The notes under the pieces were generated by a model that was not told the DNA's origin, made no database searches, and worked only from the letters and a program-made list of their open reading frames with translations. The position numbers and the translations under genes are program-made. From an uncultured Acidobacteriota bacterium (GTDB taxonomy: Bacteria; Acidobacteriota; UBA6911), in contig CAZXSV010000011.1 of the NCBI GenBank assembly GCA_964642735.1, positions 21,589 through 85,588 of the forward strand: a stretch of 64,000 nt of DNA, in the 5' to 3' direction. Within the stretch, counting starts at the first letter, position 1. The number at the start of each line of letters is the position of its first letter. Of the stretch, positions 13,026-35,434 are shown in pieces.

Positions 13026-13697
13026 TTACACCCTATTTTTTTCAAAAAGCAGTCCGAGGAAACCCGCTTCGGGGTGCATCCCGCATTCGGAGCGAGGATT
13101 CGTTTCCGGACGCTCTTCGGGCGACCAGAAGAGAGTGCTGGCGGCTCTCTTCAGTTCAAGCCCGGCGGTTTTCATCCAAGCCACGATATCGGGCGTGCGA
13201 TAGAACGTTGCATAGGCATAGACGGAGCGCCCTTGCTTTTTTTTCTTTTCATATGCCCGGCCCCACGGACTGTCTGCGGGGATGATCCCGAGGAGAAGAC
13301 TGCCTCCCGGTCGCAAGATTCGGCTGCATTCATTCAATGCCTTCTGAGGGTCCGCAATGAAACAAAGAGTCAGCGCCAGCAAAACGCCATCGAAGGAATC
13401 CGCCGGGAAAGGGATGCTCTCAGCACGGCCTGCGCATGTCCTGATCCCCCGGGCCGCAGCATGCCTAAGCATTGGGACCGAAGGATCCATCCCGTTGGCA
13501 ATTCCCAGAGATGAAGCGAATCGGCCCGTGCCCACCCCTGCCTCCAGCCAGCGGTCCACAGGATGCCTGCAAAGCGGCCGGAGGCATTGCAGTTCCGCAT
13601 TGAAAACAGCGCGTCCATCGGGCTCATCGTACCAACGGTCGTAACTATCCGCAATGGAGTCGAATATTTGCACGAATCGCCCCCCTCCAAAATGCAT
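13026..13697 (-). CDS. Class I SAM-dependent methyltransferase
   Basis: Motif I WLEAGVGTGRFA, post-I GMDPS, and LRPGGSLLL. Confidence 0.8.
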   Translation of the reverse strand: MHFGGGRFVQIFDSIADSYDRWYDEPDGRAVFNAELQCLRPLCRHPVDRWLEAGVGTGRFASSLGIANGMDPSVPMLRHAAARGIRTCAGRAESIPFPADSFDGVLLALTLCFIADPQKALNECSRILRPGGSLLLGIIPADSPWGRAYEKKKKQGRSVYAYATFYRTPDIVAWMKTAGLELKRAASTLFWSPEERPETNPRSECGMHPEAGFLGLLFEKNRV

Positions 13698-14785: not shown

Positions 14786-14798
14786 TTGCATTATGCAA
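14786..14798. promoter_or_regulatory. Type-1 palindrome TTGCATTATGCAA (putative enhancer-binding-protein site)
   Basis: Perfect TTGCA/TGCAA inverted arms, centred about 82 bp upstream of the GG of the -24 element at 14873. Confidence 0.45.
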
Positions 14799-14872: not shown

Positions 14873-14887
14873 TGGCACGCTCAATGC
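14873..14887 (+). promoter_or_regulatory. Sigma-54 (-24/-12) promoter candidate upstream of thioredoxin
   Basis: TGGCACGCTCAATGC has a perfect TGGCACG -24 box, the exact GG-N10-GC spacing and an ATGCA -12 box. It lies about 70 nt upstream of the ATG at 14957. Confidence 0.65.
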
Positions 14888-14956
14888 ATAGTCCTTCATT
14901 ACGGATCAGCATGAATGATCGGGCTAAAAAGCCGCGCTATTCGAGAGAGGGCTTCA

Positions 14957-15304
14957 ATGACTGAAAAAAGCAAAATTTTGTACGCCAACGACGAAACATT
15001 CGACACGACCGTCCTCGACAGCGCTTTGCCGGTGCTGGTCGATTTTTGGGCGCCGTGGTGCGGCCCGTGTCGAACGTTCGAGCCTACAATCGAGGAACTC
15101 GCAAAGGAGTATGCGGGCAAAATCAAATTCGTCAAGGTCAATGTCGATCAGGGCCTGCGGACGGCGATGTCTCTGGATGTGAGAAACATTCCTGCCGTCG
15201 TTCTGTTCGCTCAAGGCAAGCCGGTCCGAAAACTCGTGGGCGCGCAGCCTAAAGCCGATCTGAATTCCGCAATCGAGCAATGGCTGAATGCAAACGCAGC
15301 TTAA
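14957..15304 (+). CDS. trxA: Thioredoxin
   Basis: VLVDFWAPWCGPCR active site and a length of about 115 aa. I prefer the ATG at 14957 over the track start at 14915. Confidence 0.9.
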   Translation: MTEKSKILYANDETFDTTVLDSALPVLVDFWAPWCGPCRTFEPTIEELAKEYAGKIKFVKVNVDQGLRTAMSLDVRNIPAVVLFAQGKPVRKLVGAQPKADLNSAIEQWLNANAA

Positions 15305-15317: not shown

Positions 15318-16154
15318 TCAAGGCATCTCGACGACCGACCCGGCTTTATTGAAGAAAAAAACCTCGCCAAATTCCTGAGACAAAAGGCGGGCCGCTTTCA
15401 TATCGGTGCAATGGCATAACCCCAGCCTTTGAATGCCGAACTCCCGAAGCGCGTCGACGGTCTGCCACAAGCGCTCCTCTGAAGCGCTTATCAGATGAGA
15501 ACCGCCGACCACGGCGTAGATGTTCTCTTCACCCGTCAGACGTTTCGCGTGGTTTAAGGTGTTGATCATGCCCCGGTGGGCGCAACCCAAAACGACGACA
15601 AGACCGGCGGCCGTCCTGACAACAAGAGCCTGGTCGTCCATAACTTCATCCGGCTGCAGCCCGGGCCCTTCTTTGACCAAGAGGGCGGGATCGACTTCTT
15701 CAAAAGAAACGGCCATCGGTATTTCTCCGGTCGTCATGATGGAGTCGTCGATTTTCACAGGTTTAGGGCTGAGAACAAACGAAGCGCCGAGGCTTTCCAA
15801 TTCGCATTGACGGTAGGGGATGCCGATATAGTGAACCGGCTCGCCCTTGCGGCGAGAGTATTTCAGCCCCCATACGTCCGGGTGGGCTATCACGTCCACT
15901 TTTTTACGCATCCGGCGCAAAATTTCACGCAGGCCGCCGGTATGGTCGAAGTGGCCGTGGCTCAGCACGATTTTATCTATGTTGTGAAGATCGATCCCAA
16001 GAACGTCGGCATTGTGAACGCTGGAATGTCCTTGGCCCGTATCGAGCAAAACTCTCGTTTTTTCCGTCTCGACGAGAATGCTCAAGCCCCATTCCGCAAG
16101 AAATTCGCCGATGGAGGCGGTGTTTTCGCTTAAAGTTGTTATCCGCAGCCCCAT
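15318..16154 (-). CDS. MBL-fold metallo-hydrolase (COG1237-type)
   Basis: LSHGHFDHTGG metal motif. The N-terminus ITTLSENTA...EWGLSILVE...VLLDTG is typical of the COG1237 subgroup. Confidence 0.8.
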   Translation of the reverse strand: MGLRITTLSENTASIGEFLAEWGLSILVETEKTRVLLDTGQGHSSVHNADVLGIDLHNIDKIVLSHGHFDHTGGLREILRRMRKKVDVIAHPDVWGLKYSRRKGEPVHYIGIPYRQCELESLGASFVLSPKPVKIDDSIMTTGEIPMAVSFEEVDPALLVKEGPGLQPDEVMDDQALVVRTAAGLVVVLGCAHRGMINTLNHAKRLTGEENIYAVVGGSHLISASEERLWQTVDALREFGIQRLGLCHCTDMKAARLLSQEFGEVFFFNKAGSVVEMP

Positions 16155-16233
16155 GCCCAGCCCTCCTCAAAAGATGATTATCAAGCGCTTTTCCCGAACA
16201 TCCTCATTCGCAATCCGGCAATATTCATTCACC

Positions 16234-17262
16234 TCAGAAGCCTAAGGCCATCAACGCCGCTCCCGCCGCGAGTCCAATGGCAAGATTGATAAGTTTAATG
16301 AGAAAAAAAGTGCGGCGGGAATGAGCCAGCATCGGAAGCATTCCATGGCCGTCCTGAACAATGCAGCTTGCAAGCAGGACGCTTAAAGGAATCAGATTTT
16401 TGGAAAATAGCGTTACAAATATCAGATGCGGACCCGATTCCGGCGCCAGACCGATCAAGGCGGCGATCGTCAGCATGATCCACTTGCTGTTCTGAATCGC
16501 CTCCCCGATCTGCCATTGGTGGACCAAAAGCTCCATAAGCCAGAGAGCGCTGAAAGTCCAGAGAAACACGCGCGGGACATGCTGGCGCACGACGTGCTTC
16601 CATAAATGCTCTTCCAGGAAATGCTCCGGCGCCGCCGCCACAATGAACAGCCCGATCCCGGAAGTCAGCAGAATGGTCGCCCGAATCCAGTTCCAATGTC
16701 CGGGGCCGATCTCTCCGGCGACGACGAGAAATATAAATAACAACAGGGAGAAAAAAAGCGCCCCTCGGGCGGCCGAGCATTTTTTCCACTGAGCGACGAA
16801 TTGGCCGACTTCAAAGAATTTACCGCAGTCCTGTTCGTGAAGGCGGAAATCTTCGCTGCAAGACAGAAAACGAGTCGTCTTGGGGCCGGCCAGCCAATCC
16901 GTCAAAAACGCTCCAAGAAGACCGATAACGAACAGCAAACCATGAATCAGAAAAGCGGTTTTGGGAATCATGGCGAACATGACAAAGGATTCGTCTCCGG
17001 AAGTTGCAATCATCGCAGCCACCACGCTGCCCAGAGTCAATCTGCGGTGGGCGTACATTGCCACGACCGCAAAGGCGCCCAGACACCCCGGAGTGACGCC
17101 CAAAAAGGAAGCGAGCAGGTACTGCCCGAAGAGGCGCCGGGACAACCGCTCCTGCCATGCGCCTCGGCTGAACACGTTGAGGCACTCGATAACCAGCATG
17201 ATGATTGCGACAAAGCCGGCAATCAACAACGCCTGATTCAATGCGATCCTTGCCATCTGCAC
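16234..17262 (-). CDS. ~10-TM membrane protein, putative metal permease (ArsP_2 / 'putative manganese transporter'-like)
   Basis: Polytopic hydrophobic ORF with VIECLN near the N-terminus. The family assignment is from memory and tentative. Confidence 0.5.
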   Translation of the reverse strand: MQMARIALNQALLIAGFVAIIMLVIECLNVFSRGAWQERLSRRLFGQYLLASFLGVTPGCLGAFAVVAMYAHRRLTLGSVVAAMIATSGDESFVMFAMIPKTAFLIHGLLFVIGLLGAFLTDWLAGPKTTRFLSCSEDFRLHEQDCGKFFEVGQFVAQWKKCSAARGALFFSLLLFIFLVVAGEIGPGHWNWIRATILLTSGIGLFIVAAAPEHFLEEHLWKHVVRQHVPRVFLWTFSALWLMELLVHQWQIGEAIQNSKWIMLTIAALIGLAPESGPHLIFVTLFSKNLIPLSVLLASCIVQDGHGMLPMLAHSRRTFFLIKLINLAIGLAAGAALMALGF

Positions 17263-17348
17263 TCAGCCCCCTTCCTGCCGGGATGCGGCGATAAGCGCAT
17301 CCAACGGCGTATTTGGCAAAATTATAGGAAACCGCGAACTGCAAAATC

Positions 17349-17367
17349 AGCGCCAGTTTTGGGCGCT
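17349..17367 (-). terminator. Weak hairpin plus U-run between the two permease genes
   Basis: AGCGCC (17349-17354) pairs with GGCGCT (17362-17367). On the minus strand it is followed by GATTTTG. The stem is only 6 bp. Confidence 0.3.
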
Positions 17368-17440
17368 CAGCCTGTTTCCGGCGCCGCCGGCGCTTTCACG
17401 CCGGACCGACAACCTGACGCAAGCTAAACAATCAGACAGT

Positions 17441-18736
17441 CTAATCCAACAGGCGACGCAGCAACAGGAAATAGCCGACGATCAAAGCGCCTGTCGTCAA
17501 CGAGGAAGGCAGCAGATAACGGTAGACCGGACCGTACGTCGTGCCGAAATACCGGTTGCTGACGATCTGGCAGATATGGATGGGGCTCAGCATCTGTCCG
17601 AGGTGCCCGAAAGCGTAAGCCAGCGGGATGTAAGCCGCCATCGGACCAGCCGATTCGGCCCCGCCCGCAAGATTCAGGACGATCGGGAAAGACGTCCCCA
17701 CGAATCCGACGGCAATTCCCGTAACAAATCCGGCGATGAAAGGCAGGATGGCCGCCACCAGGGCTATCGGCACGCTGAGGTTCTGCAGTTCCCGGGCGAT
17801 CTGTTGCGGCGCCTGAACCGCTTCGAGTATATGTTGAAAGATCAGGACGGCCAAAACCAGTCCGGCGGTCGAGTAAAGAACAGGCTGCGAAAATGCTTTT
17901 AAAAGCTTTGCAATGGCGAGCCTGCGATCGAATAGCGTGAACAGGATGCTGCCCAGCAGCCCTAAAATCAACGGGCCATGTTGCAGAAGCGCGCCGGCGA
18001 GCGTTTTGGAGGGGCGATTGTCCAGACATAAGCCTGCAGCGATGTGCGCCACAAACCAAATCAGCAGAATCAACCAGATGGACGACGTCGCACGCAACAA
18101 TTTTCGTTTCACGCCGACCGGCGAAGCGGCGTTTTGAGCCTGCATGCCGGGATTCATTCGGATAAGCATCAGCAGGCCGCCAAGGAACATGGCTACAGTC
18201 CCGTAGATCATGAGAGCGGTCCAGGAAAACATATTGCGATTCGTCATTGCCATCGCAAGGATTACTCCCGGGTACAGAGGCCAGAAATACTCCCAGATGT
18301 GGCGAAACCAATAGTTGATATACGAAAGGCGCCCGTTGGAGAGTCCCGTCTTGCCGCCGGCCGCTTCAACCATCGGGGCGGAGAAGATGGCGCCGCCCGG
18401 CATGGGCAGCAAGCCAATCAGGGCCGGCATAGCCATGATTGTCACAACCGGGCGGCGAAGCGCTGCGTGAGCGAGGGAGACTATTTCCTCCAATAGTCCG
18501 CTCTCACGCATCAGTATGGACAACCCCAGAAGCAGCACGGTGATGGCGGCCAGGGCGAGGGTTTGAGGAGCGGCGCCTCCCGCCCAGGCAGCCTCGGCCA
18601 GACTTAAGGCGTCCATGCCGAAAGCCAAACCCGCCGCGGCGCTCCCGGCCAGAATAGCGAGGCCCAAAGGCGCGCGAAGGCGGGCCAAAGTGAGAATAAG
18701 CGCAAAAGCGCCGAGAGTGACCAGCAAAGCAAACAT
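17441..18736 (-). CDS. DUF401-like polytopic permease (ion-transporter superfamily)
   Basis: 431 aa with more than 10 hydrophobic segments. The N-terminus MFALLVTLGAFALILTLARLRAPLGLAILAG resembles DUF401/TIGR00529 proteins. Tentative. Confidence 0.5.
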   Translation of the reverse strand: MFALLVTLGAFALILTLARLRAPLGLAILAGSAAAGLAFGMDALSLAEAAWAGGAAPQTLALAAITVLLLGLSILMRESGLLEEIVSLAHAALRRPVVTIMAMPALIGLLPMPGGAIFSAPMVEAAGGKTGLSNGRLSYINYWFRHIWEYFWPLYPGVILAMAMTNRNMFSWTALMIYGTVAMFLGGLLMLIRMNPGMQAQNAASPVGVKRKLLRATSSIWLILLIWFVAHIAAGLCLDNRPSKTLAGALLQHGPLILGLLGSILFTLFDRRLAIAKLLKAFSQPVLYSTAGLVLAVLIFQHILEAVQAPQQIARELQNLSVPIALVAAILPFIAGFVTGIAVGFVGTSFPIVLNLAGGAESAGPMAAYIPLAYAFGHLGQMLSPIHICQIVSNRYFGTTYGPVYRYLLPSSLTTGALIVGYFLLLRRLLD

Positions 18737-18793
18737 GGCGACCCGACAAAATATCCCGATGCCTTGTTTAAATAATTCGCCGTATCATGGGGT

Positions 18794-19690
18794 TCAGATC
18801 TGGAAATTCGCATCAGGCCGAATCCCGGCGCCGGCCTCCAAAACGCCCGACAGATTGCGCCAGAGGCTTTTTATTTCCTGAGCGACCCTGCCGCTGGAAT
18901 ACTCGACTACCGGAACTCCACGAACAATGGATTCCGTAACAACGTTGTCAAAAGGTATTTTCCCCGCTATCTTGACTCCCCGGCCCAAACACTGGCTTTC
19001 TATCCGCCTTGCATTATCTTGATTCAAATCGCATTTGTTGATGCAAACCATAGCCAGGACGCCGAAATGTTTGCAGACGTCAAGCACTCTGTCCAAATCA
19101 TGCATCCCCGAAAGAGTGGGTTCGGCAACCAGCAGGGCCAGGGAGGCCCCGGACAGCGATGAAATTACCGGGCAGCCGATGCCGGGAGGGCCGTCGCATA
19201 TAATCAATTCTTTCCCTTCGCTCTCAGCGATTTTTTTGGCATGGCGCCGCACCACGGCGACAAGCTTTCCAGAGTTCTCCTCGGCGACGCCAAGCCGGGC
19301 GTGAACCAGCGGCCCGAACCTGGTTTCGGAAACAAACCAGTGTCCGCACATTCTATCTTTCATCGATATGGCTTCGGCGGGACAGATCAAGGAGCAAAAT
19401 TTGCAGCCTTCGCAGGAAACGGGATCGACGCAGAAATTTTCAATCGCGCCAAAACGGCAAATTTCCCGGCATTGGCCGCACTGGGTGCATTTTTCAGGAT
19501 CGATATAGGCGGCCTGCCCGCTCCAGAACTCGTTTTTCTGCCGCTCCTCCGGACAAAGCAGCAGATGAAGATCCGCAGCGTCCACATCGCAGTCGGCGAG
19601 CGCCTTGTTATCCGCCAAAACCGCCAGTGAACCGACGATGGTGGTTTTCCCGGTCCCCCCTTTACCGCTCAGTATGACAATTTCTTTCAT
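18794..19690 (-). CDS. MinD/ParA-type P-loop ATPase with an inserted 2x[4Fe-4S] ferredoxin domain
   Basis: ILSGKGGTGKTT deviant Walker A, plus CTQCGQCREICRFGAI and CEGCKFCSLICPAEAI. The ATG at 19690 overlaps the upstream paralog by 29 nt. Confidence 0.8.
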   Translation of the reverse strand: MKEIVILSGKGGTGKTTIVGSLAVLADNKALADCDVDAADLHLLLCPEERQKNEFWSGQAAYIDPEKCTQCGQCREICRFGAIENFCVDPVSCEGCKFCSLICPAEAISMKDRMCGHWFVSETRFGPLVHARLGVAEENSGKLVAVVRRHAKKIAESEGKELIICDGPPGIGCPVISSLSGASLALLVAEPTLSGMHDLDRVLDVCKHFGVLAMVCINKCDLNQDNARRIESQCLGRGVKIAGKIPFDNVVTESIVRGVPVVEYSSGRVAQEIKSLWRNLSGVLEAGAGIRPDANFQI

Positions 19691-20537
19691 CGATGAATCC
19701 TTTGACTCTATCGAAAAGCTCCTGGAAGCTTTTCTTCCACTTCGGCATCCCTTCAACCAAAGGTATGCCGCGCGAATAAAACCGGGCGATCTCGGCGTCC
19801 AGCGGGATGGAAAGCAGGATTGGAATGCCCTCTTTCCGACAATACTCCTGCACTCCGGAGTCTCCGACTCCGGTGCGGTTCAGCGCCACTCCGAAGGGAA
19901 TATCAAGCTTCCTTGCCATTTCCACGGCGAGAGAAAGGTCATTAAGACCAAAGGGAGTCGGTTCGGTGACCAGCAGGCAGAAATCGCTTCCTTTCACGGC
20001 TTCCACCACGGGGCAGGAAGTCCCCGGCGGAACGTCTCTGATGACGACGCCTTCGCATCCCGCGTTTTCCTTCACCTTTCGGATAACGGGCGGGGCCATG
20101 GCTTCCCCCACATTCAGTGCGCCATGAATGAAACTTATGCCGTTTGAATCCCCCCATTCGACGATTCCTGTTTCCCTGTTTTCCTCCTCGATCGCCTTTT
20201 CCGGGCAAAGGAAGCTGCACGCGCCGCAGCCGTGACAAAGCTGGGGAAAAGTCAACACACGCTTCCCCATAACGATAATCGCATTATAAGCGCATGCTTC
20301 GGCGCACTTCCGGCATAGGGTGCACTTTTTCTCGTCGACTTTCGGAACCGGAATCCACACGGCGCTTCTTCCGGCTATTTCAGGATTAAGAAAAATGTGA
20401 TCGTTCGGCTCTTCGACGTCGCAGTCGACGAGCTGGACTTTATGGGAATCTTTCAAAGAGAGGGCGAGGCTGGTCGCCACCAGCGTCTTGCCGGTTCCTC
20501 CTTTGCCGCTGGCTACCGATATAATCATTTTGTTCAA
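19662..20537 (-). CDS. MinD/ParA-type P-loop ATPase with an inserted 2x[4Fe-4S] ferredoxin domain (paralog)
   Basis: VASGKGGTGKTL, plus CTLCRKCAEACAYNAI and CHGCGACSFLCPEKAI. Confidence 0.8.
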   Translation of the reverse strand: MNKMIISVASGKGGTGKTLVATSLALSLKDSHKVQLVDCDVEEPNDHIFLNPEIAGRSAVWIPVPKVDEKKCTLCRKCAEACAYNAIIVMGKRVLTFPQLCHGCGACSFLCPEKAIEEENRETGIVEWGDSNGISFIHGALNVGEAMAPPVIRKVKENAGCEGVVIRDVPPGTSCPVVEAVKGSDFCLLVTEPTPFGLNDLSLAVEMARKLDIPFGVALNRTGVGDSGVQEYCRKEGIPILLSIPLDAEIARFYSRGIPLVEGMPKWKKSFQELFDRVKGFIDERNCHTER

Positions 20538-20546
20538 CTTCCTTGT

Positions 20547-21107
20547 TCAATTATTTTTCCCCAACTCTTCGATCCGCCGTTGGATTTCCGCCAGCTGATC
20601 CGCCATCATCCGCGACTGATTCTTCAGCTCCTGGAGCTCCTGTTCACGGCCTGATGACTGGGTTGAGGGCTCTGCCGCGCCTTTGCCCCTGCCGCAGCCT
20701 TTTCCCGCCCCTCGATTCATTCCGCCGCCTGCGCCCGGCGATCCCCCCATGCCAAAATGATCCGGCGCGTTAGCCTGATCGCTCGCTTTGTATTTGCCCA
20801 ACCGATAGTTTTGCACGACGTCTTTCACCTTGCCTGAGACTCCGGTGATGATCCCGACGCCGGCGGCGGAAAGCGCCTGGTAAGCGTTGGGTCCGCAGTG
20901 GCCTGTCAATACCGCCTGCACGCCTTTATCGGCGATTGTCTGTGCGGCTGCAATCCCTGCGCCGCCGGCCGCCGAAGCCGCGGAGTTGTCCATTGCTTCG
21001 AACGCCATTGTCTCGGGATCGACAATAATAAAGTAAGGGCAACGGCCGAACCGTGGCTCGGCTTCGGCTTCCAGGCCGGGGCCCGCTGCTGAAATTGCAA
21101 TTTTCAT
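20547..21107 (-). CDS. NifX/NifB-C-terminal-like (dinitrogenase FeMo-cofactor-binding fold) domain fused to a Gly-rich linker and a DUF5320-like coiled coil
   Basis: N-terminus MKIAISAAG...RFGRCPYFIIVD...AVLTGHCGPNAYQAL, then GGSPGAGGGMNRGAGKGCGRGKG, then ELQELKNQSRMMADQLAEIQRRIEEL. Confidence 0.75.
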   Translation of the reverse strand: MKIAISAAGPGLEAEAEPRFGRCPYFIIVDPETMAFEAMDNSAASAAGGAGIAAAQTIADKGVQAVLTGHCGPNAYQALSAAGVGIITGVSGKVKDVVQNYRLGKYKASDQANAPDHFGMGGSPGAGGGMNRGAGKGCGRGKGAAEPSTQSSGREQELQELKNQSRMMADQLAEIQRRIEELGKNN

Positions 21108-21124
21108 ATCTCCTCCTCGTTTTT

Positions 21125-21859
21125 CTATTTATTATTCCTAACCATGGTGAGCCGACGAACTCCCCCGATCTGCCGGTAATTGGCGCCCTGGCTCACACAG
21201 CGGAGGGCCAGGTCCGCGTCAAAAACTTTCGTGCCCGATATGGCATCGATGCCGTAATCAAAAAGAACGGGCGACAGCGGCGCGCTGTCGCCGAGGATTA
21301 CAACATAGGCTTCAGGTCTGCACAAATCCAGCAGTTGTTCGATAGTATGGTTGGTAAAGGCCGTACCGGTAATTCCAACGACATCGGCCATTGGGATGCA
21401 ATCAACCGACGCGGATTCATCCAGGTCTCCTTCGGCCGGATTCTTCTCAATAACCCAGAGTTCCTTCACCGCTTCACGCAGCTCGGGGATGAAGGGAAAA
21501 TGCCCAACGATGGCCACATTCCGGCCCCTTCCCTTTTCGGCGATCAATTCGCGGGCATTGAGGTTTCGGCAGCGTTCTTCATCAATTTCGAGCAATGAAT
21601 TGATCGTCGCCATGCCAACGGCCGCTTCCAGAATGCTGTCGGAATAAGCCATTTCAACCAGCTCCGATGCGCTTTTAGCCAAAAGCTCGCCCGGCGTCCG
21701 GATAGACGGACGGCCCTGTTTTAAAACGTCGCGCGGCAGGGTGGAAGCCAAACCGCAATTGCGGGTCGCCACGCCCGTATGAAAGAGACCGACGCGTATG
21801 TCTCTTACATCCGCTTCAGTGTTCAAAGTCGAAAGCAAGTCTTCGAGAATTTTTTTCAC
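21125..21859 (-). CDS. DUF4213/DUF364 protein (putative metal-chelation fold), copy 1
   Basis: Contains IRVGLFHTGVATRNCGLASTL and a Rossmann-like VAIVGHFPF. Collinear with 43399..44145. Confidence 0.75.
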   Translation of the reverse strand: MKKILEDLLSTLNTEADVRDIRVGLFHTGVATRNCGLASTLPRDVLKQGRPSIRTPGELLAKSASELVEMAYSDSILEAAVGMATINSLLEIDEERCRNLNARELIAEKGRGRNVAIVGHFPFIPELREAVKELWVIEKNPAEGDLDESASVDCIPMADVVGITGTAFTNHTIEQLLDLCRPEAYVVILGDSAPLSPVLFDYGIDAISGTKVFDADLALRCVSQGANYRQIGGVRRLTMVRNNK

Positions 21860-22047
21860 AGCTTCATCCGCCTTCCGGTCGCAATATCTTGCTCAGCCTG
21901 AGAATCCCAAGCCTGTGGACTTGTAAAAGAGGCAAAGAAGCGCAGAATCCGAAATGTTCACAGGGCGCTTCATCGGCGCATCCGGAGAATACACTGCGTG
22001 GCTTTTGAATCCTCGCTGTTTTCCGTCTGCTGCACCTTAAGAGTCAA

Positions 22048-22062
22048 GCAATAATCTTTCCA
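22048..22062 (-). promoter_or_regulatory. Sigma-54 promoter candidate for the DUF364-NifX-MinD-permease-MBL operon
   Basis: The minus strand reads TGGAAAGATTATTGC with exact GG-N10-GC spacing. The -24 box is weaker (TGGAAA) and the site is about 190 nt upstream of the ATG at 21859. I saw no clear type-1 site beside it. Confidence 0.35.
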
Positions 22063-22140
22063 ATACTGTTCCGAAAATGCCGTACGGTTCGATGCGGGCA
22101 TTGCAAGGTACGCTTTGCTTGGGCGAACTGTTCATCAACA

Positions 22141-23517
22141 CTATCGCACGCGTTTCCTGCCGGCGCGGCCATCCCGTTCCGGCGGCTTGATTCCGAGTCT
22201 TTTCATCCGCCGAAATAAAGTTGTCTTGTGGATGCCCAGCTCCTTCGCCGCCGCAAGGCGATTGAATCCGGTTCGATCGAGAGTCGAACGAATGGCCTGT
22301 GCATCGAAAACGTCATGGACTGATCGAATGCCGGAATCGAACCGGCCGGCGGCGGCCAAGCCGGTCAACTCTTCAGGCAGGTGCGGGATATCGATAAATC
22401 CGTCCCTGCAAAGAACGAAAGCGCGCTCGATGACATTTTCCAGTTCCCGAATATTGCCTGGCCAATGATACGCCATCATAAGCGACAGAGCTTCTGGCGC
22501 GACCCCCTGGACATTCTTTCGCTGCAGGCGGTTGAAACGCGCAATGAACTGGTTTGCCAGAAGCGGAATGTCCTCTTTCCGCCGGCGCAACGGCGGAAGT
22601 TCGATGCGGACGACATGGACCCGGTAGTAAAGGTCCTCTCTGAAAAGACCCTTGCGGACCATTTCACGCAGGTCTTTGTTGGTGGCGGCAATGACGCGGG
22701 CATCGGCGGCGACGGATCGATCGGCGCCAAGCGGTTCATAGGCGCGCTCCTCGAGCACGCGCAGCAGCTTGACCTGGAGAGCCGGAACGACTTCAGCGAT
22801 TTCGTCGAGGAAAATGGTCCCCCCGCCGGCCAAGGCAAAACGTCCCGGCTTGTCCCGGTTTGCTCCCGTAAACGCTCCGGCCTTATAGCCGAACAGTTCA
22901 GACTCCAGAAGCGTTTCCGGCAAAGCGCCGCAATTGACAGCTATGAATGGCCCATGGCGCCGGGGGCTTAGAGAATGAACGGTTCTAGCCGCCACCTCTT
23001 TTCCGGTTCCCGTCTCCCCCAGGATCAAAACCGTGCTCAGGCTGGACGCAATTGCGGGAAGGACTTCAAACACCCGCTGCATCAAAGGACTCCTGCTGAC
23101 AAGATCGCCGGCGTGGAATTTCCCCTCGAGTTCACGACGCAGCGCCTCCAGTTCGGAAAGGTCTCTGAAAGTCTCGGCGCCGCCGACCACACGTCCGCTG
23201 CCATCCCTTAACACCGCCGTGGAAATGCTTACCGGTATGCGGGTCCCTTCGGAGTTGATTATGAACGCTGATTTTCCAATGATGGGTTTCCCCGTTTCCA
23301 GGGTCTTGGCAAGAGCGCACGCGTCCCCGCACATGCTGCAGCGGAACACTTCCGAACATCGCTGTCCAACGGCTTCTTTTCTGGAAACGCCTGTGATTTC
23401 CTCGGCCGCACGGTTAAAAGAGGCAATGCGCCATTGCCCGTCTACGGTGAAAACGCCATCGGAAATGCTCTCCAAAATGGCTTCAGTCTGGAATCGTTTT
23501 CTCGGATTCTTTTTCAC
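22141..23517 (-). CDS. Sigma-54-dependent transcriptional activator, PAS - AAA+ - Fis-HTH (EBP1)
   Basis: GETGTGKEVAARTVH Walker A, GAFTGA loop, C-terminal AAKELGIHKTTLFRRMKRLGI, and an N-terminal PAS domain (ISDGVFTVDGQWRIASFNRAAEEITG). Confidence 0.9.
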   Translation of the reverse strand: MKKNPRKRFQTEAILESISDGVFTVDGQWRIASFNRAAEEITGVSRKEAVGQRCSEVFRCSMCGDACALAKTLETGKPIIGKSAFIINSEGTRIPVSISTAVLRDGSGRVVGGAETFRDLSELEALRRELEGKFHAGDLVSRSPLMQRVFEVLPAIASSLSTVLILGETGTGKEVAARTVHSLSPRRHGPFIAVNCGALPETLLESELFGYKAGAFTGANRDKPGRFALAGGGTIFLDEIAEVVPALQVKLLRVLEERAYEPLGADRSVAADARVIAATNKDLREMVRKGLFREDLYYRVHVVRIELPPLRRRKEDIPLLANQFIARFNRLQRKNVQGVAPEALSLMMAYHWPGNIRELENVIERAFVLCRDGFIDIPHLPEELTGLAAAGRFDSGIRSVHDVFDAQAIRSTLDRTGFNRLAAAKELGIHKTTLFRRMKRLGIKPPERDGRAGRKRVR

Positions 23518-23636
23518 AGCGCGCCCCTGCCCCGCTTTCTTTCATGCAGACGCCGTGCCACAGACGGGATGTTTTTGCACAAAGCGCTTCCTGCCGGCCT
23601 ATCGGCGCCGCCGCCGGAAAACATGGATACGATACA

Positions 23637-23680
23637 TTGCACAATGCAAAAATAACATTTTCACTTAATGCATTTTGCAA
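23637..23680. promoter_or_regulatory. Pair of type-1 palindromes (TTGCACAATGCAA and ATGCATTTTGCAA), 31 bp centre to centre
   Basis: Sites at 23637-23649 and 23668-23680, in the divergent EBP1/mrp intergenic region. They lie 140-171 bp upstream of the -24 element at 23813. Confidence 0.5.
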
Positions 23681-23812
23681 CAATATCATCGGCCGAGTGG
23701 AATAAACGGGAGGCGCCGCGGAAACAAAACCTTCGGCGGAATCCTGTGCGCGGAAGCGGGCGCCTGAGTTAAAAGCGAACCCTGGAGATCCCGATCGAAA
23801 TTTCTTTCGCCT

Positions 23813-23827
23813 TGGCACGATCATTGC
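23813..23827 (+). promoter_or_regulatory. Sigma-54 promoter candidate for the mrp-nifX-like-fmdB-like-radical SAM operon
   Basis: TGGCACGATCATTGC is a consensus -24 TGGCACG and -12 TTGC with exact spacing. It lies 66 nt upstream of the ATG at 23893. Confidence 0.7.
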
Positions 23828-23892
23828 CTGCATTAAACCTGTCAAGAGCGCAAAGGCCCGAAAACACGGAGCAACCCCTGTGAGAGTGAGCT

Positions 23893-24972
23893 ATGGCAAC
23901 CGAATCTGAAGTGAGAAAGGCGTTGGAGCAGGTTCAGGACCCTGAACTCGGCAGGAGCATTGTCGATCTCGGGATGGTGCGCAACCTGCAAGTTGAGGAA
24001 GGCATCGTGGCTTTCACGCTGGCGCTGACCAGCCTGTCGTGTCCGTTTAAGGATCGCATGGTTGAAAGTGCAAAAAAAGCGGTGCAAGCGTTGGATGGGG
24101 TCCGGGACGTCGACGTCTTCCTGGAACAAATGACGCCTACGGAAAAAGGCTCTTTGAACAAAAAGGATGCGCCCAAGAGCATTGTGGAAAAGCTGAACGA
24201 CGTCAAACACGTCATCGCCGTTATGAGCGGGAAGGGCGGAGTCGGGAAATCCCTGGTCACGGGCCTTCTGGCGGCCAGCTTTCGCCGCATGGGTCATAAA
24301 GTGGGAGTGCTCGACGCCGACATTACCGGCCCCAGCATTCCCAAGATGTTTTTTAAAAATGGCGCGCGCCCCGGAACCAGCCCTATGGCACTGTTGCCGC
24401 CGAAGACGCAGACGGGCATATCCGTAATGTCGATAAACCTTCTGCTTGAGAGCGAAGACCAGGCGGTGATCTGGCGCGGCCCACTAGTCAGCAACGCCAT
24501 AAAGCAGTTCTGGACCGAGGTTTTATGGGGGGAATTGGACTACCTGCTGGTCGACCTGCCTCCCGGCACCTCAGACGCCTCTCTGACGGTGCTTCAATCT
24601 CTGCCGATGAGCGGAGTCGTTTTGGTTACGTCGCCGCAGAATCTCGCAGGAATGGTTGTACGCAAAGCGGCGAACATGGTTCGGGACATCGGAATCCCGA
24701 TCCTTGGCTTGCTGGAAAACATGAGCTATTTCGTCTGCCCCGACACCGGCGCCCATCACGAGATTTTCGGAAAGAGCGAGCCTGAGCTCATGGCCTCTCA
24801 ACTCGGGATCCCGCTGCTCGGATGTCTGCCGATCGATCCAGCGATCGCGGCGCTATGCGACCGGGGAGAGATTGAAAATTATCCGGGAGATTTGTTCACA
24901 CCGATCGCCCGTCAAATTGCAAAACTCGCGCCGGCGGCAAGCGCTCCTAAAATGCCGCCGCAGGAATCCTAA
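23893..24972 (+). CDS. apbC: Mrp/NBP35/ApbC-family Fe-S cluster carrier ATPase with an N-terminal DUF59-like domain
   Basis: VMSGKGGVGKS deviant Walker A, LDYLLVDLPPGTSD, NMSYFVCPDTG (CxxC-type carrier motif region), and N-terminal VQDPELGRSIVDLGMV. Confidence 0.85.
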   Translation: MATESEVRKALEQVQDPELGRSIVDLGMVRNLQVEEGIVAFTLALTSLSCPFKDRMVESAKKAVQALDGVRDVDVFLEQMTPTEKGSLNKKDAPKSIVEKLNDVKHVIAVMSGKGGVGKSLVTGLLAASFRRMGHKVGVLDADITGPSIPKMFFKNGARPGTSPMALLPPKTQTGISVMSINLLLESEDQAVIWRGPLVSNAIKQFWTEVLWGELDYLLVDLPPGTSDASLTVLQSLPMSGVVLVTSPQNLAGMVVRKAANMVRDIGIPILGLLENMSYFVCPDTGAHHEIFGKSEPELMASQLGIPLLGCLPIDPAIAALCDRGEIENYPGDLFTPIARQIAKLAPAASAPKMPPQES

Positions 24973-25028
24973 CAAGTTTCGTGCGAGCCAAATCACAAAG
25001 TGGCGCGCCATTTGCACCAGGGTGTTCT

Positions 25029-25415
25029 ATGAGAGTTGCAATTCCATTGTGGCAAGGACGCGTTTCGCCGGTTTTCGACGAGGCGCGCAGGATTCTTCTT
25101 GTAGACATTTTCGAAAAACAGGAAAAAAGCCGGCAGGAGGAGTCTCTGACGGCACGAAATCCATTCGAACGGGCGCAGCTGCTTCCGGAGCTCGGAGTCG
25201 ACCTTCTGATCTGCGGGATGATATCTCAAACTCAGCAGACCGCGCTTGCTTCCGCCGGGATCCGGATAATCCCGCACATCTGCGGTCCGATGGAGGATGT
25301 GATTGCCGCATTTCTTGACGGCCGGATTGAAAACGGAGCGCTGCTAATGCCAGGATGCAGCGGCCGAAAGCGCTCGCGCCGCAGAATCGCCGGATCATGC
25401 CGGAAAGAGGTCTAA
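25029..25415 (+). CDS. NifX/NifB-C-terminal-like cofactor-binding-fold protein
   Basis: MRVAIPLWQGRVSPVFDEARRILLVD...LLICGMISQ...ASAGIRIIP. I prefer the ATG at 25029. Confidence 0.75.
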   Translation: MRVAIPLWQGRVSPVFDEARRILLVDIFEKQEKSRQEESLTARNPFERAQLLPELGVDLLICGMISQTQQTALASAGIRIIPHICGPMEDVIAAFLDGRIENGALLMPGCSGRKRSRRRIAGSCRKEV

Positions 25416-25472
25416 CCCGCATTGCTCGTGAAACTTCGTAGCGAGCCATGCGGGCTGATTGATGGGGGAACG

Positions 25473-25733
25473 ATGATCACCTATGAGTATCAGTGTGAAG
25501 CTTGCGGACGCCAATTTGAGTTCCGGCAGGCCATTACGGAAGAGCTTATCGACACCTGCCCGGAATGCCAGGGAAAGCTGAGCCTTTTGGTCAGCGGAGG
25601 ATCAGGTTTCGTGGTCAAGGGAGGCGGCCATGAAGTTCGCGGAAGAAGCAAAGACGGCTGCTCGTTTGAATCGACGGGAAGGACCTGCTGCGGCCAACAG
25701 CAGCGTTGCGGGAAGCCCGCATGCGAGACCTAG
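25473..25733 (+). CDS. FmdB-family zinc-ribbon protein with a Cys-rich tail
   Basis: YEYQCEACGRQFE...CPECQG zinc ribbon with tail CSFESTGRTCCGQQQRCGKPACET. The ATG at 25473 follows GGGGGAA. Confidence 0.75.
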   Translation: MITYEYQCEACGRQFEFRQAITEELIDTCPECQGKLSLLVSGGSGFVVKGGGHEVRGRSKDGCSFESTGRTCCGQQQRCGKPACET

Positions 25734-25735
25734 CC

Positions 25736-26701
25736 ATGAAGGAATCGCGCTTGAAACATATCTACGGCCCGGTCCCTTCACGGCGTCTGGGGCGATCCCT
25801 GGGAATCGATCTGGTCCCTTTTAAAACCTGCACCTACGACTGCGTTTATTGCAACCTGGGAAAAACAACCAGCAAAACAATTGAGCGAAAGCAATATACG
25901 GCGGCATCGGAAGTTCTTGAAGAACTGGAACAAAAACTGGCTTGCCCGGAGGCTTTGGACTATATCAGCCTTGCAGGCTCCGGCGAACCGACCTTGAATA
26001 GCGGCATCGGAAATTTAATCCTCGAAATCAAAAGAAGGACCGATATTCCGGTGGCGGTATTGACCAACGGATCTCTTCTATGGATGAGCGCCGTTCAGGA
26101 CGCCTTGATGGAAGCAGACCTCGTGCTACCCTCCTTGGACGCAGGCGACGAACTGCTTTTTGACTACGTCAACCGCCCTCACAGGGACATCGCCTTCGAA
26201 AGGATGGTGGACGGCCTTGCCGCTTTCACCGATCGATACAGGGGAGAGGTTTGGGTGGAAATTCTCCTGCTGGCGGGCGTTACAGGAATTCCGGACGAAG
26301 TTGAAAAAATCGCATCCATTCTCAAGCATATCCGATTGACGAAAGTCCAGATGAACACCGTGGTTCGACCTCCGGCAGAGGAGTATGCCAAGCCCTTATC
26401 TCAAAAGCAGATGCTTGCTTTGAAGGGTCTTTTCCAGGGCAGGGTTGACATCATCAGCGATATAGACGCGGCGGATTGGGAAAGGCGGCTGCCCCCCGAA
26501 TCCATGCAGGGCGACCTGCTTTCATTGCTATCAAGGAGGCCATGCACGAGCGAAGATGTCGCGCACGGCCTGGGATTGCACGCCAATGAAGCGCTTAAAT
26601 ATTTGAATGCATTCGTCGTCGCGGGAAATGTGGCGACGGTGCGGATGGGCGATAAAGTTTTTTACACCGTTAAAAGACCGGAAAATAATTTGAGGCCTTG
26701 A
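25736..26701 (+). CDS. Radical SAM protein
   Basis: CTYDCVYCNLG (CxxxCxxC), preceded by the conserved YGPVPSRRLGRSLGID. The ATG at 25736 is 2 nt after the fmdB-like stop. Confidence 0.85.
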   Translation: MKESRLKHIYGPVPSRRLGRSLGIDLVPFKTCTYDCVYCNLGKTTSKTIERKQYTAASEVLEELEQKLACPEALDYISLAGSGEPTLNSGIGNLILEIKRRTDIPVAVLTNGSLLWMSAVQDALMEADLVLPSLDAGDELLFDYVNRPHRDIAFERMVDGLAAFTDRYRGEVWVEILLLAGVTGIPDEVEKIASILKHIRLTKVQMNTVVRPPAEEYAKPLSQKQMLALKGLFQGRVDIISDIDAADWERRLPPESMQGDLLSLLSRRPCTSEDVAHGLGLHANEALKYLNAFVVAGNVATVRMGDKVFYTVKRPENNLRP

Positions 26702-26702
26702 T

Positions 26703-26795
26703 ATGAGCGCTATGCTGGCGATCGTGTTTCTCCTGATTTGCTTTGCCGCGCAGGCGGCGTTCTCCAAATCGAAACACTCCGCAAAACGCAAATAA
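26703..26795 (+). CDS. Possible 30-aa hydrophobic micro-ORF coupled to the radical SAM gene
   Basis: The ATG lies 1 nt after the radical SAM stop (TGATATG), with GAGG 7 nt upstream. It encodes MSAMLAIVFLLICFAAQAAFSKSKHSAKRK, one TM-like segment plus a basic tail. It is below the ORF-track size cut-off and has no homology support. Confidence 0.25.
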   Translation: MSAMLAIVFLLICFAAQAAFSKSKHSAKRK

Positions 26796-27048
26796 GCGTC
26801 CTGAGGCAAAGCCGGAGTCTTAACGGGTTTCCCGCAAATGCCATAAGGAAGCGCCTTCCGCCGTGTGTTGCAGGTCTTCTTGATTGAAAATAAGACTCGG
26901 GCATAAAACATTCTCCAGTATTTTCAGGACTGCCGCGCTCCCCGGCGGAGCCGAAAAATTTATCCTGCCCGTTTCCGGATATGGCCTTAAATTCTCAAAG
27001 CCTTCCGTTTATAATGGCGAAAAAACATCAGACAAGAGGTTTGGAATT

Positions 27049-27837
27049 ATGTATAACTTTTCAGAAGTGGAAGTATCGCGGGCAATTCTGGAAGCCTATG
27101 GCGCCAAATTCGGCAAAGCCCTGCAGAGCGATGTTGTGCTGGTCGGAGCAGGGCCTTCCGGCCTGGTGGCGGCCTGGCGTCTTGCTCAGGCGAATTACAG
27201 CGTTGTCATACTCGAAAAGCGTCTCAGCCCCGGAGGCGGCGTCTGGGGCGGCAGCCTCGGAATGAATGAGGTCGTCGTCCAGCAGGAGGCCTTAAGCATC
27301 CTCGAGGAGGCAGGGGTGCGATTCCAGCCGAGCGGGCGTTTGTTTAACGCCGATGCGATGGAACTGGCGTCGGCCCTGTGCGTGAAGGCTTTGCACGCCG
27401 GCGCAATCATGCTCAATCTCATGACCGCCGAGGATCTTTGCGTTCGCGGCGAACGGGTGACGGGAGTCGTCGCCAACAGATCGCTGCTGGGCGAGAATCT
27501 GCCCATCGACCCCATTGCTTTCTCGACGAAGGCCGTGATTGACGCGACAGGGCATGAAGCCGTCCTTGCCAACTGCCTGCAGCGGCGCGGACTGCTCCCC
27601 AACAATCAAGCCCGGCTTCCCGGCGAAGGCCCGATGGACGCTTCTTCCGGAGAAAAATTCGTCGAGGATTCGGTGACCGAAATATTTCCGGGCTTATGGG
27701 TGGCCGGGATGAGCATCTGCGCGTCCATAGGCGGGCCGAGAATGGGGCCGATCTTCGGCGGCATGCTTCTGTCGGGCAACAGGGCGGCCCGGTTGGTGGC
27801 TTCCTCTGTCGGGAAGAATCCAGGCTCCGGCGAATAA
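27049..27837 (+). CDS. thi4: Thi4-type thiazole synthase (Cys-less, sulfide-dependent type)
   Basis: VVLVGAGPSGLVAAWRL FAD motif and VIDATGHEA (the archaeal DATGHDA-type motif, with no catalytic Cys). I prefer the ATG at 27049. Confidence 0.85.
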   Translation: MYNFSEVEVSRAILEAYGAKFGKALQSDVVLVGAGPSGLVAAWRLAQANYSVVILEKRLSPGGGVWGGSLGMNEVVVQQEALSILEEAGVRFQPSGRLFNADAMELASALCVKALHAGAIMLNLMTAEDLCVRGERVTGVVANRSLLGENLPIDPIAFSTKAVIDATGHEAVLANCLQRRGLLPNNQARLPGEGPMDASSGEKFVEDSVTEIFPGLWVAGMSICASIGGPRMGPIFGGMLLSGNRAARLVASSVGKNPGSGE

Positions 27838-31926: not shown

Positions 31927-32111
31927 AGCTGTTCACCTCTCGCAGAAACGATGAGCATCATATAACCAGATTATGCACGCAAACCGCAAGCCAATCAATC
32001 TATGGAATAATCTTTGCGTCCATCGTTGATTTAAGATAAAAACTCTGGGAAATTATTGCATTGCGAAATGCCAAAGTTACGGAGACGACAACAGAAAGCC
32101 GCGGCGACCTT

Positions 32112-35413: not shown

Positions 35414-35434
35414 CAGCCCCTATAAGGAATTATT

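Follow-up and report, generated by a model that had tools for sequence, protein, structure and literature searches.

The 64,000-nt stretch of DNA analysed here, from an uncultured Acidobacteriota bacterium (contig CAZXSV010000011.1; the whole stretch is called the window below), carries a region that is probably the Acidobacteriota variant of the orange protein (ORP) system known from Desulfovibrio vulgaris and D. gigas, with a role in redox-gated handling of metal sulfides. A first-pass annotation, made from the sequence without database searches, had described the genes at 15318-26795 as an orphan island for handling metalloclusters. All twelve of its family assignments, with their coordinates, were borne out by profile searches against Pfam and NCBIfam at curated cut-offs. 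The island is, however, not an orphan: it appears to be the counterpart of the published Desulfovibrio orp/OrpR system, as indicated by the cysteine motif that its activator shares with OrpR and by the D. gigas ORP, which is the best structure match of one of its proteins.

The orp genes of D. vulgaris form divergent sigma-54-dependent operons, orp5-4-3 and orp7-8-9, with orpR (DVU2106) between them; Orp3 and Orp4 resemble MinD and carry two [4Fe-4S] motifs, and in Orp9, called MrpORP, an Mrp domain is joined to a Di-Nase (NifX-like) domain (PMC8359166, PMC3897727, PMC6345978). MrpORP transfers Fe-S clusters to Orp3/Orp4 (PMC6345978), and Orp8 is the orange protein itself, which in D. gigas holds a Mo-Cu-S cluster, [S2MoS2CuS2MoS2]3- (cited in PMC6345978). 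OrpR of D. vulgaris senses redox potential through a [4Fe-4S] cluster in its PAS domain, for which C52, C61 and C65 are needed, and D/E54 is conserved (PMC8359166). The window has in common with this system a PAS-AAA+-HTH activator between sigma-54-driven orp genes, with the same cysteine and glutamate spacing in the PAS domain; an ORP homologue, two MinD-like ATPases with a double [4Fe-4S] motif, and an Mrp-type ATPase together with a Di-Nase protein; and a putative palindromic operator upstream of promoters.

What the ORP complex does has been debated since the discovery of the orange protein, as has the function of the NifX-like/MinD-ferredoxin (MinD-Fd) neighbourhoods that are very common in anaerobes. 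Our analysis points to a gene set far wider than the Desulfovibrio system, which is one of its forms; the membership of this set is regular and takes in DUF364, a NifU-like scaffold, DUF5320, a radical SAM enzyme, a CoA-disulfide-reductase-like protein with a rhodanese domain (CoADR-rhodanese) and regulators of the OrpR or DUF134 type. The pattern of this set points to the handling of iron sulfide or metal sulfide over cell division. It also brings new parts into view, namely two OrpR subfamilies, a new candidate operator, an Mrp subfamily without the CxxC motif and an ORP with a tail like that of IssA, and the identity of the cargo, if found, would help to explain by what means strict anaerobes make, store or move metal-sulfur clusters under sulfidic conditions.

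Activators, promoters and candidate operators

The gene for the activator EBP1 (22141-23517, minus strand) matches PAS, Sigma54_activat and HTH_8 in Pfam; its AAA+ domain carries the loop GAFTGA and its helix-turn-helix (HTH) is of the Fis type. The PAS domain holds the motif C54-x-E56-x6-C63-x3-C67 and an extra cysteine, C60, with a spacing identical to that of C52/E54/C61/C65 in D. vulgaris OrpR (PMC8359166). This motif is present in every neighbouring activator at least 55% identical whose N-terminus lies on the contig, and in none at 51% identity or below. A second activator, EBP2 (44237-45637, plus strand), is 54% identical to EBP1 and carries the OrpR-type motif CFEVFRASICENAC. The loop of EBP2 and its relatives reads GAFTDA, the variant listed for D. 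vulgaris OrpR, DVU2106 (PMC4641369), where EBP1 has GAFTGA instead. Judged by these motifs, EBP1 is an OrpR-type activator and the window encodes two paralogues of this type, both of which would sense low redox potential through an Fe-S cluster in the PAS domain.

EBP1 is encoded on the minus strand, co-directional with the operon headed by DUF364, which is also the topology of orpR in D. vulgaris. The earlier picture of two operons diverging around EBP1 is corrected in that the activator gene runs with one of them. That the genes stand under a dedicated activator agrees with our results; EBP1 is a sigma-54 activator accompanied by predicted sigma-54 promoters that are partly conserved in relatives.

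Divergent sigma-54 promoters had likewise been proposed; they are present, but we found at least five candidates, not two. Those predicted from sequence flank the EBP1 gene on both sides and stand before the orp gene sets. The promoter of the DUF364-ORP-MinD operon (TGGAAAGATTATTGCT, 22047-22062, minus strand) is conserved, its TGGAAR-N5-TTGCW being the sole conserved block when the upstream regions of the window and of L001-L006 are aligned (L-numbers denote related loci or contigs; L001-L006 and L008 are syntenic contigs labelled Acidobacteriota). The other minus-strand site, TGGCACGGCGTCTGCA (23545-23560, one mismatch), lies 27 nt before the GTG start of EBP1 and is not clearly conserved in L004. 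On the plus strand, TGGCACGATCATTGCC (23813-23828, one mismatch) lies 65 nt before the ATG of mrp, and similar sites precede mrp in L002, L006 and L008. The site before the gene for NifX2, a second NifX-like protein, is TGGCGCGCCATTTGCA (25001-25016, plus strand), with orthologous sites in L001 (TGGCACGCTATTTGCT) and L004 (TGGCACGCCATTTGCT) and a sigma-54-like site just upstream of the NifX2 homologue in 8 of 11 loci. This conservation implies that the true start of NifX2 is the ATG at 25029, and that NifX2 forms a unit of its own with the zinc ribbon and radical SAM genes that follow. The site ends 13 nt before that ATG in the window and in L001 (about 30-36 nt in other lineages), which would imply a leaderless or nearly leaderless transcript. 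Finally, TGGCACGCTCAATGCA (14873-14888, plus strand, one mismatch) lies 27 nt before the ATG of a thioredoxin gene (14915-15304, plus strand; TIGR01068, 115.6 bits against a cut-off of 96.8). One further candidate, before the permease gene ArsP_2 (17340-17355), was kept in 0 of 7 relatives and was not counted as established.

We searched the window for the palindrome TTGCA-N3-TGCAA, allowing at most one mismatch and comparing the count with 100 shuffles. Ten matches were found against 2.7 expected, none of the 100 shuffles reached 10, and the background over 1.78 Mb of related loci was 2.3 per 64 kb. The positions fit those expected of an enhancer, and the palindrome is shared by the first island and a second module described below. 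Between EBP1 and mrp lies a pair 31 bp apart, TTGCACAATGCAA and ATGCATTTTGCAA (23637-23680), which the divergent promoters may share as an upstream activating sequence. An exact match, TTGCATTATGCAA (14786-14798), about 75 nt upstream of the thioredoxin promoter, is another candidate activator site. Upstream of nifU in the second module there is again an exact match, TTGCAGAATGCAA (42272-42284), which recurs at this position in the orthologous metagenome contigs L085 and, carrying one mismatch, L097. The pair before EBP2 (44199-44242), likewise 31 bp apart, is kept in L085, L086, L093, L094 and L097; it overlaps a sigma-70-like promoter, TTGACA-N17-CAATAT, that was read by eye, an arrangement resembling the autorepression described for orpR. 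No palindrome was found upstream of ArsP_2, NifX2, CoADR or the thiazole synthase gene Thi4.

The stretch 33468-34034, between the two modules, holds a small cysteine-rich open reading frame (ORF; 112 aa, MKKAKMACPFTGGPCLECSLYRGRH..., no Pfam match) preceded by a sigma-54-like site, TGGAAGGCATATTGCT, at 33847-33862 on the minus strand, with an exact palindrome, TTGCAAAATGCAA, upstream of it at 34022-34034; this ORF may belong to the same regulon. Intrinsic terminators, sought to mark operon ends, were uninformative (22 against 18.7 expected). Rfam gave no match between 13.5 and 46.5 kb at E<=1, and a tRNA search found no tRNA gene in the window.

Proteins of the first island and the second module

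The first gene of the minus operon (21125-21859) encodes a DUF4213+DUF364 protein (Pfam 120.8 and 60.5 bits) that matches the structure 3L5O in the Protein Data Bank (PDB; E=4e-19). The two-domain DUF4213 + DUF364 architecture is the same as in Dhaf4260, the protein of that structure, and in Orf5, a 4-methylazetidinecarboxylate synthase; the sole characterised member of the family acts on a derivative of S-adenosylmethionine (SAM) in Streptomyces secondary metabolism. Genes of the family adjoin transporters for molybdate, tungstate and vanadium, and in Methanococcus one of these genes shows cofitness with nifH (PMC2954201, bioRxiv 2024.03.05.583561). This link to metal transporters holds for the family overall, whereas the subfamily of the window is tied instead to ORP and MinD-Fd genes. 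The window protein has 6018 homologues at E<=1e-10. From a species-representative genome collection, 499 stretches with DUF364 relatives were obtained, of which the best 80 were kept as genome loci (L001-L080); among these best 80, which come from Acidobacteriota, Dehalococcoidia, Desulfobacterota and other metagenome-assembled genomes, conservation of the subfamily is unusually high, with 64-79% identity between phyla.

The second gene (20547-21107, minus strand) encodes the ORP homologue, a Nitro_FeMo-Co domain of the NifX fold fused to DUF5320 (PF02579 + PF17253). The best PDB match of its N-terminal domain is 2WFB, the D. gigas ORP (E=5.6e-22), to which it is 45% identical over 106 aa; the other two NifX-like proteins of the window reach only 25-34% (25% for NifX2). 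The fusion is kept in 17 of 40 ORP-bearing loci. Its DUF5320 tail of 82 aa contains 15 Gly and 12 Arg+Lys, one Cys and only two aromatic residues, has a pI of 8.9 and ends in a coiled coil, and the N-terminal domain adds two cysteines. Standalone DUF5320 genes in related loci encode proteins rich in Gly, Arg and aromatic residues, with one Cys. These features recall IssA of Pyrococcus furiosus, in which a NifX-like domain carries a Gly-rich cationic tail with one Cys and which stores Fe-S as thioferrate; the tail, of about 70 residues, is unstructured, Gly- and aromatic-rich and holds the single Cys of the protein (PMC5524996). Compared with IssA by its published description, the window protein has in common the N-terminal IPR003731 domain of the MTH1175/ORP type and the Gly-rich, cationic, single-Cys tail, but IssA has 14 aromatic residues in its tail where the window protein has 2, and the latter ends in its coiled coil. 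IssA is, moreover, encoded by a stand-alone sulfur-induced gene, outside any MinD-Fd/Mrp cluster.

Two MinD-type ATPases similar to Orp3/Orp4 follow on the minus strand, copy a at 19662-20537 (Pfam ParA/CbiA + Fer4) and copy b at 18794-19690 (CbiA + Fer4; start taken from the public gene call in L081). Each carries a 2x[4Fe-4S] ferredoxin insert with two CxxCxxCxxxC motifs, and their nearest solved relatives are archaeal MinD proteins. Further along the same strand lie three genes that we treat as accessory: a DUF401/TIGR00529 membrane protein (17441-18736; PF04165, 155 bits), the ten-transmembrane permease ArsP_2 (16234-17262; PF11449, 110 bits; NF037962, "arsenic efflux protein", 121.7 bits against a cut-off of 100) and a COG1237-type metallo-beta-lactamase (MBL)-fold hydrolase (15318-16154; Pfam Lactamase_B), whose top PDB matches are the COG1237 proteins 2P4Z (E=3e-39) and 3H3E.

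On the plus strand, mrp (23893-24972) encodes an FeS_assembly_P (DUF59) domain and a NUBPL-type P-loop ATPase (PF10609, 302.8 bits) with the deviant Walker A motif GKGGVGKS. The P-loop and Walker A are common to the Mrp/NBP35/ApbC family of Fe-S carriers, but the CxxC that ligates their bridging [4Fe-4S] cluster is missing, and the statement of the first-pass annotation that Mrp/ApbC carries Fe-S clusters is thus not simply transferable to this protein. Its 11 closest relatives have no Cys at all at the CxxC positions. The CxxC-less DUF59-Mrp subfamily comprises the proteins of the window, L001, L008, L009, L011, L012, L016, L026, L029, L035, L044 and L060; its single invariant Cys lies near the C-terminus, and in contigs of Dehalococcoidia and Acidobacteriota its gene comes after the MinD-Fd pair. 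Canonical CPxC forms of Mrp occur in Desulfobacteraceae loci. NifX2 (25029-25415 within the ORF 24981-25415, plus strand; Di-Nase/Nitro_FeMo-Co, PF02579, 38 bits) matches positions 263-364 of the MrpORP model NF041136, of which Mrp covers positions 2-244, and by these matches mrp and NifX2 together correspond to a split MrpORP.

After NifX2 come an FmdB-type zinc ribbon (25473-25733, ORF 25422-25733, plus strand; TIGR02605, 53.8 bits against a cut-off of 31.3) and a radical SAM enzyme with the motif CTYDCVYC (25736-26701, ORF 25706-26701, plus strand; PF04055). The radical SAM protein has one CxxxCxxC motif and no auxiliary-cluster motifs; it gave weak generic matches in NCBIfam, none of them to NifB, and has no sequence homologue in the PDB, and on these grounds a NifB-like identity was rejected. 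Radical SAM homologues occur in 17 of 160 related loci, in some of them, together with the zinc ribbon gene, between the two MinD-Fd genes (L127, L139). The pairing of NifX with a Zn_ribbon_8 protein also follows the MinD-Fd pair in the unrelated ORP loci L082 and L084, and contigs with homologues of the D. gigas ORP read DUF134 - x - ORP - MinD-Fd - MinD-Fd - NifX - Zn ribbon, which places this pair in the old core.

A second, paralogous module lies at 36.4-45.7 kb, about 10 kb from the first island. Its plus strand carries a second DUF364 paralogue (43399-44145), which shares 33% identity with the first and follows a sigma-54-like site (43310-43325), and then EBP2. On the minus strand are a third NifX-like protein, NifX3 (42776-43150, Pfam), a 4HBT-fold protein (42292-42765, Pfam), a NifS cysteine desulfurase with a NifU/IscU-type scaffold (40494-42121; TIGR03402, 492.8 bits, and TIGR03419, 142 bits) and an ATP-binding cassette (ABC) importer of the Mo/W oxyanion type (36468-40284), made up of a ModA-like binding protein (39304-40284), two ModB/WtpB-like permeases and a WtpC-like ATPase. 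The top NCBIfam matches of the importer genes are modA, Mo_ABC_porter/modB/WtpB and WtpC, all below their cut-offs; as called, their ORFs reach hundreds of bases into the genes upstream, and the real starts must lie well downstream. The order NifX3-4HBT-NifS is kept in L093, L094 and L097, where DUF169 adjoins the relatives of the module, and metagenomic relatives of the second DUF364 also stand in orp-like clusters. The earlier judgement that neither product nor client can be read from the window overlooked this module and the palindrome it shares with the first island.

The window departs from the D. vulgaris system in several respects, beginning with its host, Acidobacteriota instead of Desulfovibrionales. 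ORP sits with the MinD pair, with Mrp on the other side; ORP is fused to DUF5320, and MrpORP appears split, with an N-terminal DUF59 gained and CxxC lost. DUF364, the zinc ribbon, the radical SAM enzyme, DUF401, ArsP_2, the MBL hydrolase and the presence of two paralogous activators are extras. The candidate operator is TTGCA-N3-TGCAA instead of GGGCGYRTTTTGCGCCC, no consensus for integration host factor (IHF) was found, and the EBP1 gene itself appears to have a sigma-54 promoter, unlike orpR. The widespread COG1433/COG1149 neighbourhoods (structures MTH1175, TM1290 and PH0822) show the same NifX/MinD-Fd core order and the NifX + Zn_ribbon_8 pair, as in L082 and L084, but have a DUF134 regulator with no OrpR-type activator seen beside the module, and the examples read lack DUF364, Mrp and radical SAM. 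With nitrogenase maturation (NifB, NifX, NafY, NifH) the window has in common NifX-fold carriers, a P-loop Fe-S ATPase, a radical SAM enzyme and NifS/NifU nearby; it differs in carrying neither a NifB signature nor NifEN/NifDK, and in that nothing matches the NifH family above the cut-off. The first-pass annotation had reported no nitrogenase, carbon monoxide dehydrogenase (CODH) or hydrogenase, and Pfam scans of most window ORFs of at least 110 aa (those left out being mostly below 200 aa) agree, with none of the three found.

Recurrence of the gene set and the question of cargo

Gene content of the genome loci was determined by tblastn of the window proteins against the best 80 of the 499 stretches, with counts taken over the 27 loci that have at least 6 kb on both sides. 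The order DUF364 > ORP > MinD-Fd > MinD-Fd is colinear in 21 of 57 long-enough genome loci. Across the 27, ORP is present in 21, MinD-Fd in 17-18, Mrp in 15 and a NifU-like protein in 15, followed by the MBL hydrolase (8), CoADR (7), radical SAM (6), ArsP_2 (4) and DUF401 (1). A metagenome set of 32 loci of at least 8 kb, centred on the second DUF364 paralogue, gave NifX-like proteins in 19, MinD-Fd in 16-17, Mrp in 16, NifU-like in 15, radical SAM in 11, an OrpR-like activator in 11, CoADR in 10 and MBL in 7. Of all 160 related loci, 41 carry NifU-like genes, 34 standalone DUF5320, 32 DUF134 regulators (mostly on genome contigs), 21 CoADR-rhodanese homologues (inside the cluster in L127 and L139), 13 a SAM methyltransferase (41% identical to the one at 13026-13697 in the window), 13 Fur-family regulators and 5 FeoB.

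The set that recurs across phyla consists of DUF364, ORP/NifX, the two MinD-Fd ATPases, Mrp, a NifU-like protein and DUF5320; radical SAM, the zinc ribbon, MBL, CoADR-rhodanese and OrpR-like activators are its less frequent members. DUF401 and ArsP_2 are lineage-specific add-ons and the MBL hydrolase an occasional companion, none of them core. ArsP_2 occurs in 7 of the 80 genome loci, with its highest identity (63-77%) in the Acidobacteriota-labelled L001, L002, L004 and L008; DUF401 turned up once among the 80 genome loci and never among the 32 metagenome loci, and the metagenome set contains no island permease at all. The general idea of a self-contained metal-sulfur pathway fits the core genes, which are co-conserved across phyla, but does not extend to DUF401, ArsP_2 and the MBL hydrolase. 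In L004, the closest relative, the layout is that of the window minus Mrp and DUF401, and about 3 kb separate the orp radical SAM gene from an ABC importer that is 69-81% identical to that of the window; ModA is otherwise rare (2 of 80 genome loci, 1 of 32 metagenome loci). Superclusters in L127 and L133 combine both activator types, ORP, CoADR, MinD-Fd, zinc ribbon, radical SAM, NifU, DUF364, further NifX genes and Mrp in a single cluster, from which the two modules of the window and CoADR-rhodanese appear to be two halves of one recurrent gene set.

DUF364 and MinD-Fd are 63-79% identical across Acidobacteriota, Dehalococcoidia and Desulfobacterota contigs. The pyruvate kinase of the window (61090-62529) has its nearest match, at 70% identity, in a protein named "MAG: Acidobacteria bacterium" and falls to about 50-52% identity outside that small clade. 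The conservation of DUF364 and MinD-Fd suggests strong constraint, horizontal transfer or both.

We infer the following course of events, including the complex, its cargo and the direction of cargo flow. The activator, by homology, would bind the TTGCA-N3-TGCAA palindromes and at low redox potential switch on DUF364 - ORP::DUF5320 - two MinD-Fd (and possibly DUF401), together with mrp, the unit NifX2 - Zn ribbon - radical SAM, and thioredoxin. The paralogous activator and the second DUF364 would control or accompany NifX3 - NifU - NifS - ABC importer. NifS/NifU and the Mrp-type ATPase may supply Fe-S building blocks, and the two MinD-Fd ATPases may form an ATP-driven complex with the NifX-fold carriers. 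Such a complex would build or keep an anionic metal-sulfide species, or pass it on to clients whose genes lie elsewhere. The cargo would most likely be an Fe-S or thioferrate-like species, possibly a Mo/W-S one: the NifU, NifS, Fur and FeoB neighbours and the precedent of IssA favour iron sulfide, and the Mo-Cu cluster of ORP, the link of DUF364 to Mo/W transporters and the importer in the window and L004 keep a Mo/W cargo open.

Several observations weigh against reading the region as an ORP system that handles metal sulfides. The likeness to Orp3, Orp4, Orp5, Orp7 and OrpR of D. vulgaris was judged solely by domain architecture, published motifs and an NCBIfam model. Against the MrpORP model, Mrp scores 312 bits, below the cut-off of 450, over positions 2-244, and in place of CxxC it reads VCPDTG where CPxC would be expected (ENMSYFVCPDTGAHH). 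The OrpR palindrome of D. vulgaris is absent from the relevant regions even at 3 mismatches, and it has only the core GCA-N3-TGC in common with TTGCA-N3-TGCAA. No operator with up to 2 mismatches was found near the DUF364 promoter (22040-22500, 450 bp upstream), and no strict IHF site (WATCARNNNNTTR) in four intervals, the latter a weak test as the sites that function in D. vulgaris do not follow this consensus strictly. When the 1863 ORFs of the 160 related loci were clustered all against all, no large recurrent client enzyme emerged, the best candidates being a molybdenum bis-pyranopterin guanine dinucleotide (Mo-bisPGD) oxidoreductase and a methylenetetrahydrofolate reductase (MTHFR)-like protein, each in only 7 of the loci. 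Lastly, the published D. vulgaris phenotype is one of changed cell morphology, and the complex has been proposed to help to position the septum.

If the cargo were a sulfide of Mo or W, the region would take up oxyanions, handle thiometallates and either feed a cofactor or sequester thiomolybdate, with Cu, on ORP. The [S2MoS2CuS2MoS2]3- cluster bound by D. gigas ORP, the siting of DUF364 genes near molybdate, tungstate and vanadium transporters and the cofit of one of them with nifH speak for this, as do the Mo/W-type importer of the second module, which in L004 neighbours the orp radical SAM gene, and the Mo-bisPGD oxidoreductase of the 7 loci. We nevertheless consider it rather doubtful: the importer is as rare as the ModA counts indicate, and with all matches below cut-off its substrate specificity is unproven; Rfam at gathering score showed no molybdenum cofactor (Moco) or other riboswitch in the whole window; no Mo/W enzyme or moa/moe gene was seen among the scanned ORFs; and the commonest partners, NifU-like, Fur-family and FeoB, point to iron. 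The morphological defects that follow orpR inactivation in D. vulgaris, a regulon annotated "cell division", the polar location of MrpORP and the MinD-like C-terminal amphipathic helix of Orp3/Orp4 (PMC6345978) suggest a different reading, in which the ORP complex positions division or shape determinants as MinD does and its metal clusters are merely regulatory or structural; the archaeal MinD relatives of the MinD-Fd proteins would fit. The gene neighbourhoods do not support a cell-division role. What recurs in them is NifU, NifS, NifX-fold proteins, radical SAM, DUF364, Fur and FeoB, with no division or cell-wall gene, and the module is widespread in lineages of very different cell biology, such as Dehalococcoidia, which makes such a role improbable.

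Equally improbable in our view is a nitrogenase-independent line for a complex cofactor, with the radical SAM enzyme acting like NifB, a NifX-fold protein carrying the precursor and MinD-Fd acting like NifH. The parts do parallel the series NifS/NifU -> NifB -> NifX -> NifH, and the radical SAM and zinc ribbon genes between the MinD-Fd genes of L127 and L139, with radical SAM in 17 of the 160 loci, would suit it; however, radical SAM is absent from most loci, the window protein has no auxiliary-cluster motifs, no NifB match and no PDB homologue, and none of the 160 loci has a NifEN/NifDK-like scaffold. An island for detoxification or efflux of metalloids or thiometallates, centred on ArsP_2, DUF401, MBL and thioredoxin, seems very unlikely. 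ArsP_2 does exceed the NCBIfam cut-off for an arsenic efflux protein, and thioredoxin has a predicted sigma-54 promoter and operator of its own. Yet conservation is lowest for exactly the permeases and the MBL hydrolase (DUF401 in 1, ArsP_2 in 4 and MBL in 8 of 27 loci, and no permease in the metagenome set), the promoter candidate of ArsP_2 is not conserved, and the scanned ORFs include no ArsR, ArsC or ArsB. Beyond the preferred reading of an ORP system for metal-sulfide handling, we tentatively entertain a broader one, doubtful as it stands: that the recurrent set is a redox-gated assembly or storage line, independent of nitrogenase, for a non-standard cofactor (thioferrate-like Fe-S or Mo/W-S), spread horizontally among anaerobic phyla, for whose true cargo the Mo-Cu cluster of Desulfovibrio is a surrogate. 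Its members would be DUF364, ORP/NifX with IssA-like DUF5320 tails, two MinD-Fd, the CxxC-less Mrp, NifU/NifS, radical SAM, the zinc ribbon and CoADR-rhodanese.

Companion and flanking genes

Several companions lie just outside the bounds that the first-pass annotation had drawn around the island and were missed by them. Besides the thioredoxin gene, these are the recurrent SAM-dependent methyltransferase (Methyltransf_11, Pfam; 13026-13697, minus strand), an occasional DUF169 protein (PF02596; 13893-14675, plus strand) and, on the far side, the recurrent CoADR-rhodanese, a flavoprotein with a C-terminal rhodanese domain (Pfam/NCBIfam; 28065-29753, plus strand). Directly after the radical SAM gene stands a sulfide-dependent thiazole synthase, Thi4 (26884-27837; TIGR00292, 230 bits); a related Thi4 adjoins a DUF364 relative in L107 only.

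Thiol/redox genes cluster between the modules (31165-36090). Two of them encode C_GCAxxG_C_C proteins (31165-31926 and 35518-36090), another a protein of 480 aa that carries a VKOR domain at its C-terminus (32061-33503), and a DUF169 fragment lies at 35027-35413. Upstream of the first island lie a TudS-type 2-thiouracil desulfurase fused to DUF1722 (8695-9645) and an MTHFR-like protein of 651 aa with a DUF5981 C-terminal domain (5619-7574); an MTHFR-like gene recurs in 7 related loci. Beyond the second module, a third sigma-54 activator, of the response-regulator type with the loop GSFTGA (50653-52035), is paired with a histidine kinase (49370-50680); the pair adjoins a CitMHS/TrkA-C transporter (47479-49362) and a DUF2202 ferritin-like protein (46693-47331). 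Two cytochrome c genes follow at 54411-57147, one of them weakly similar to the outer-membrane multihaem cytochromes MtrC/MtrF.

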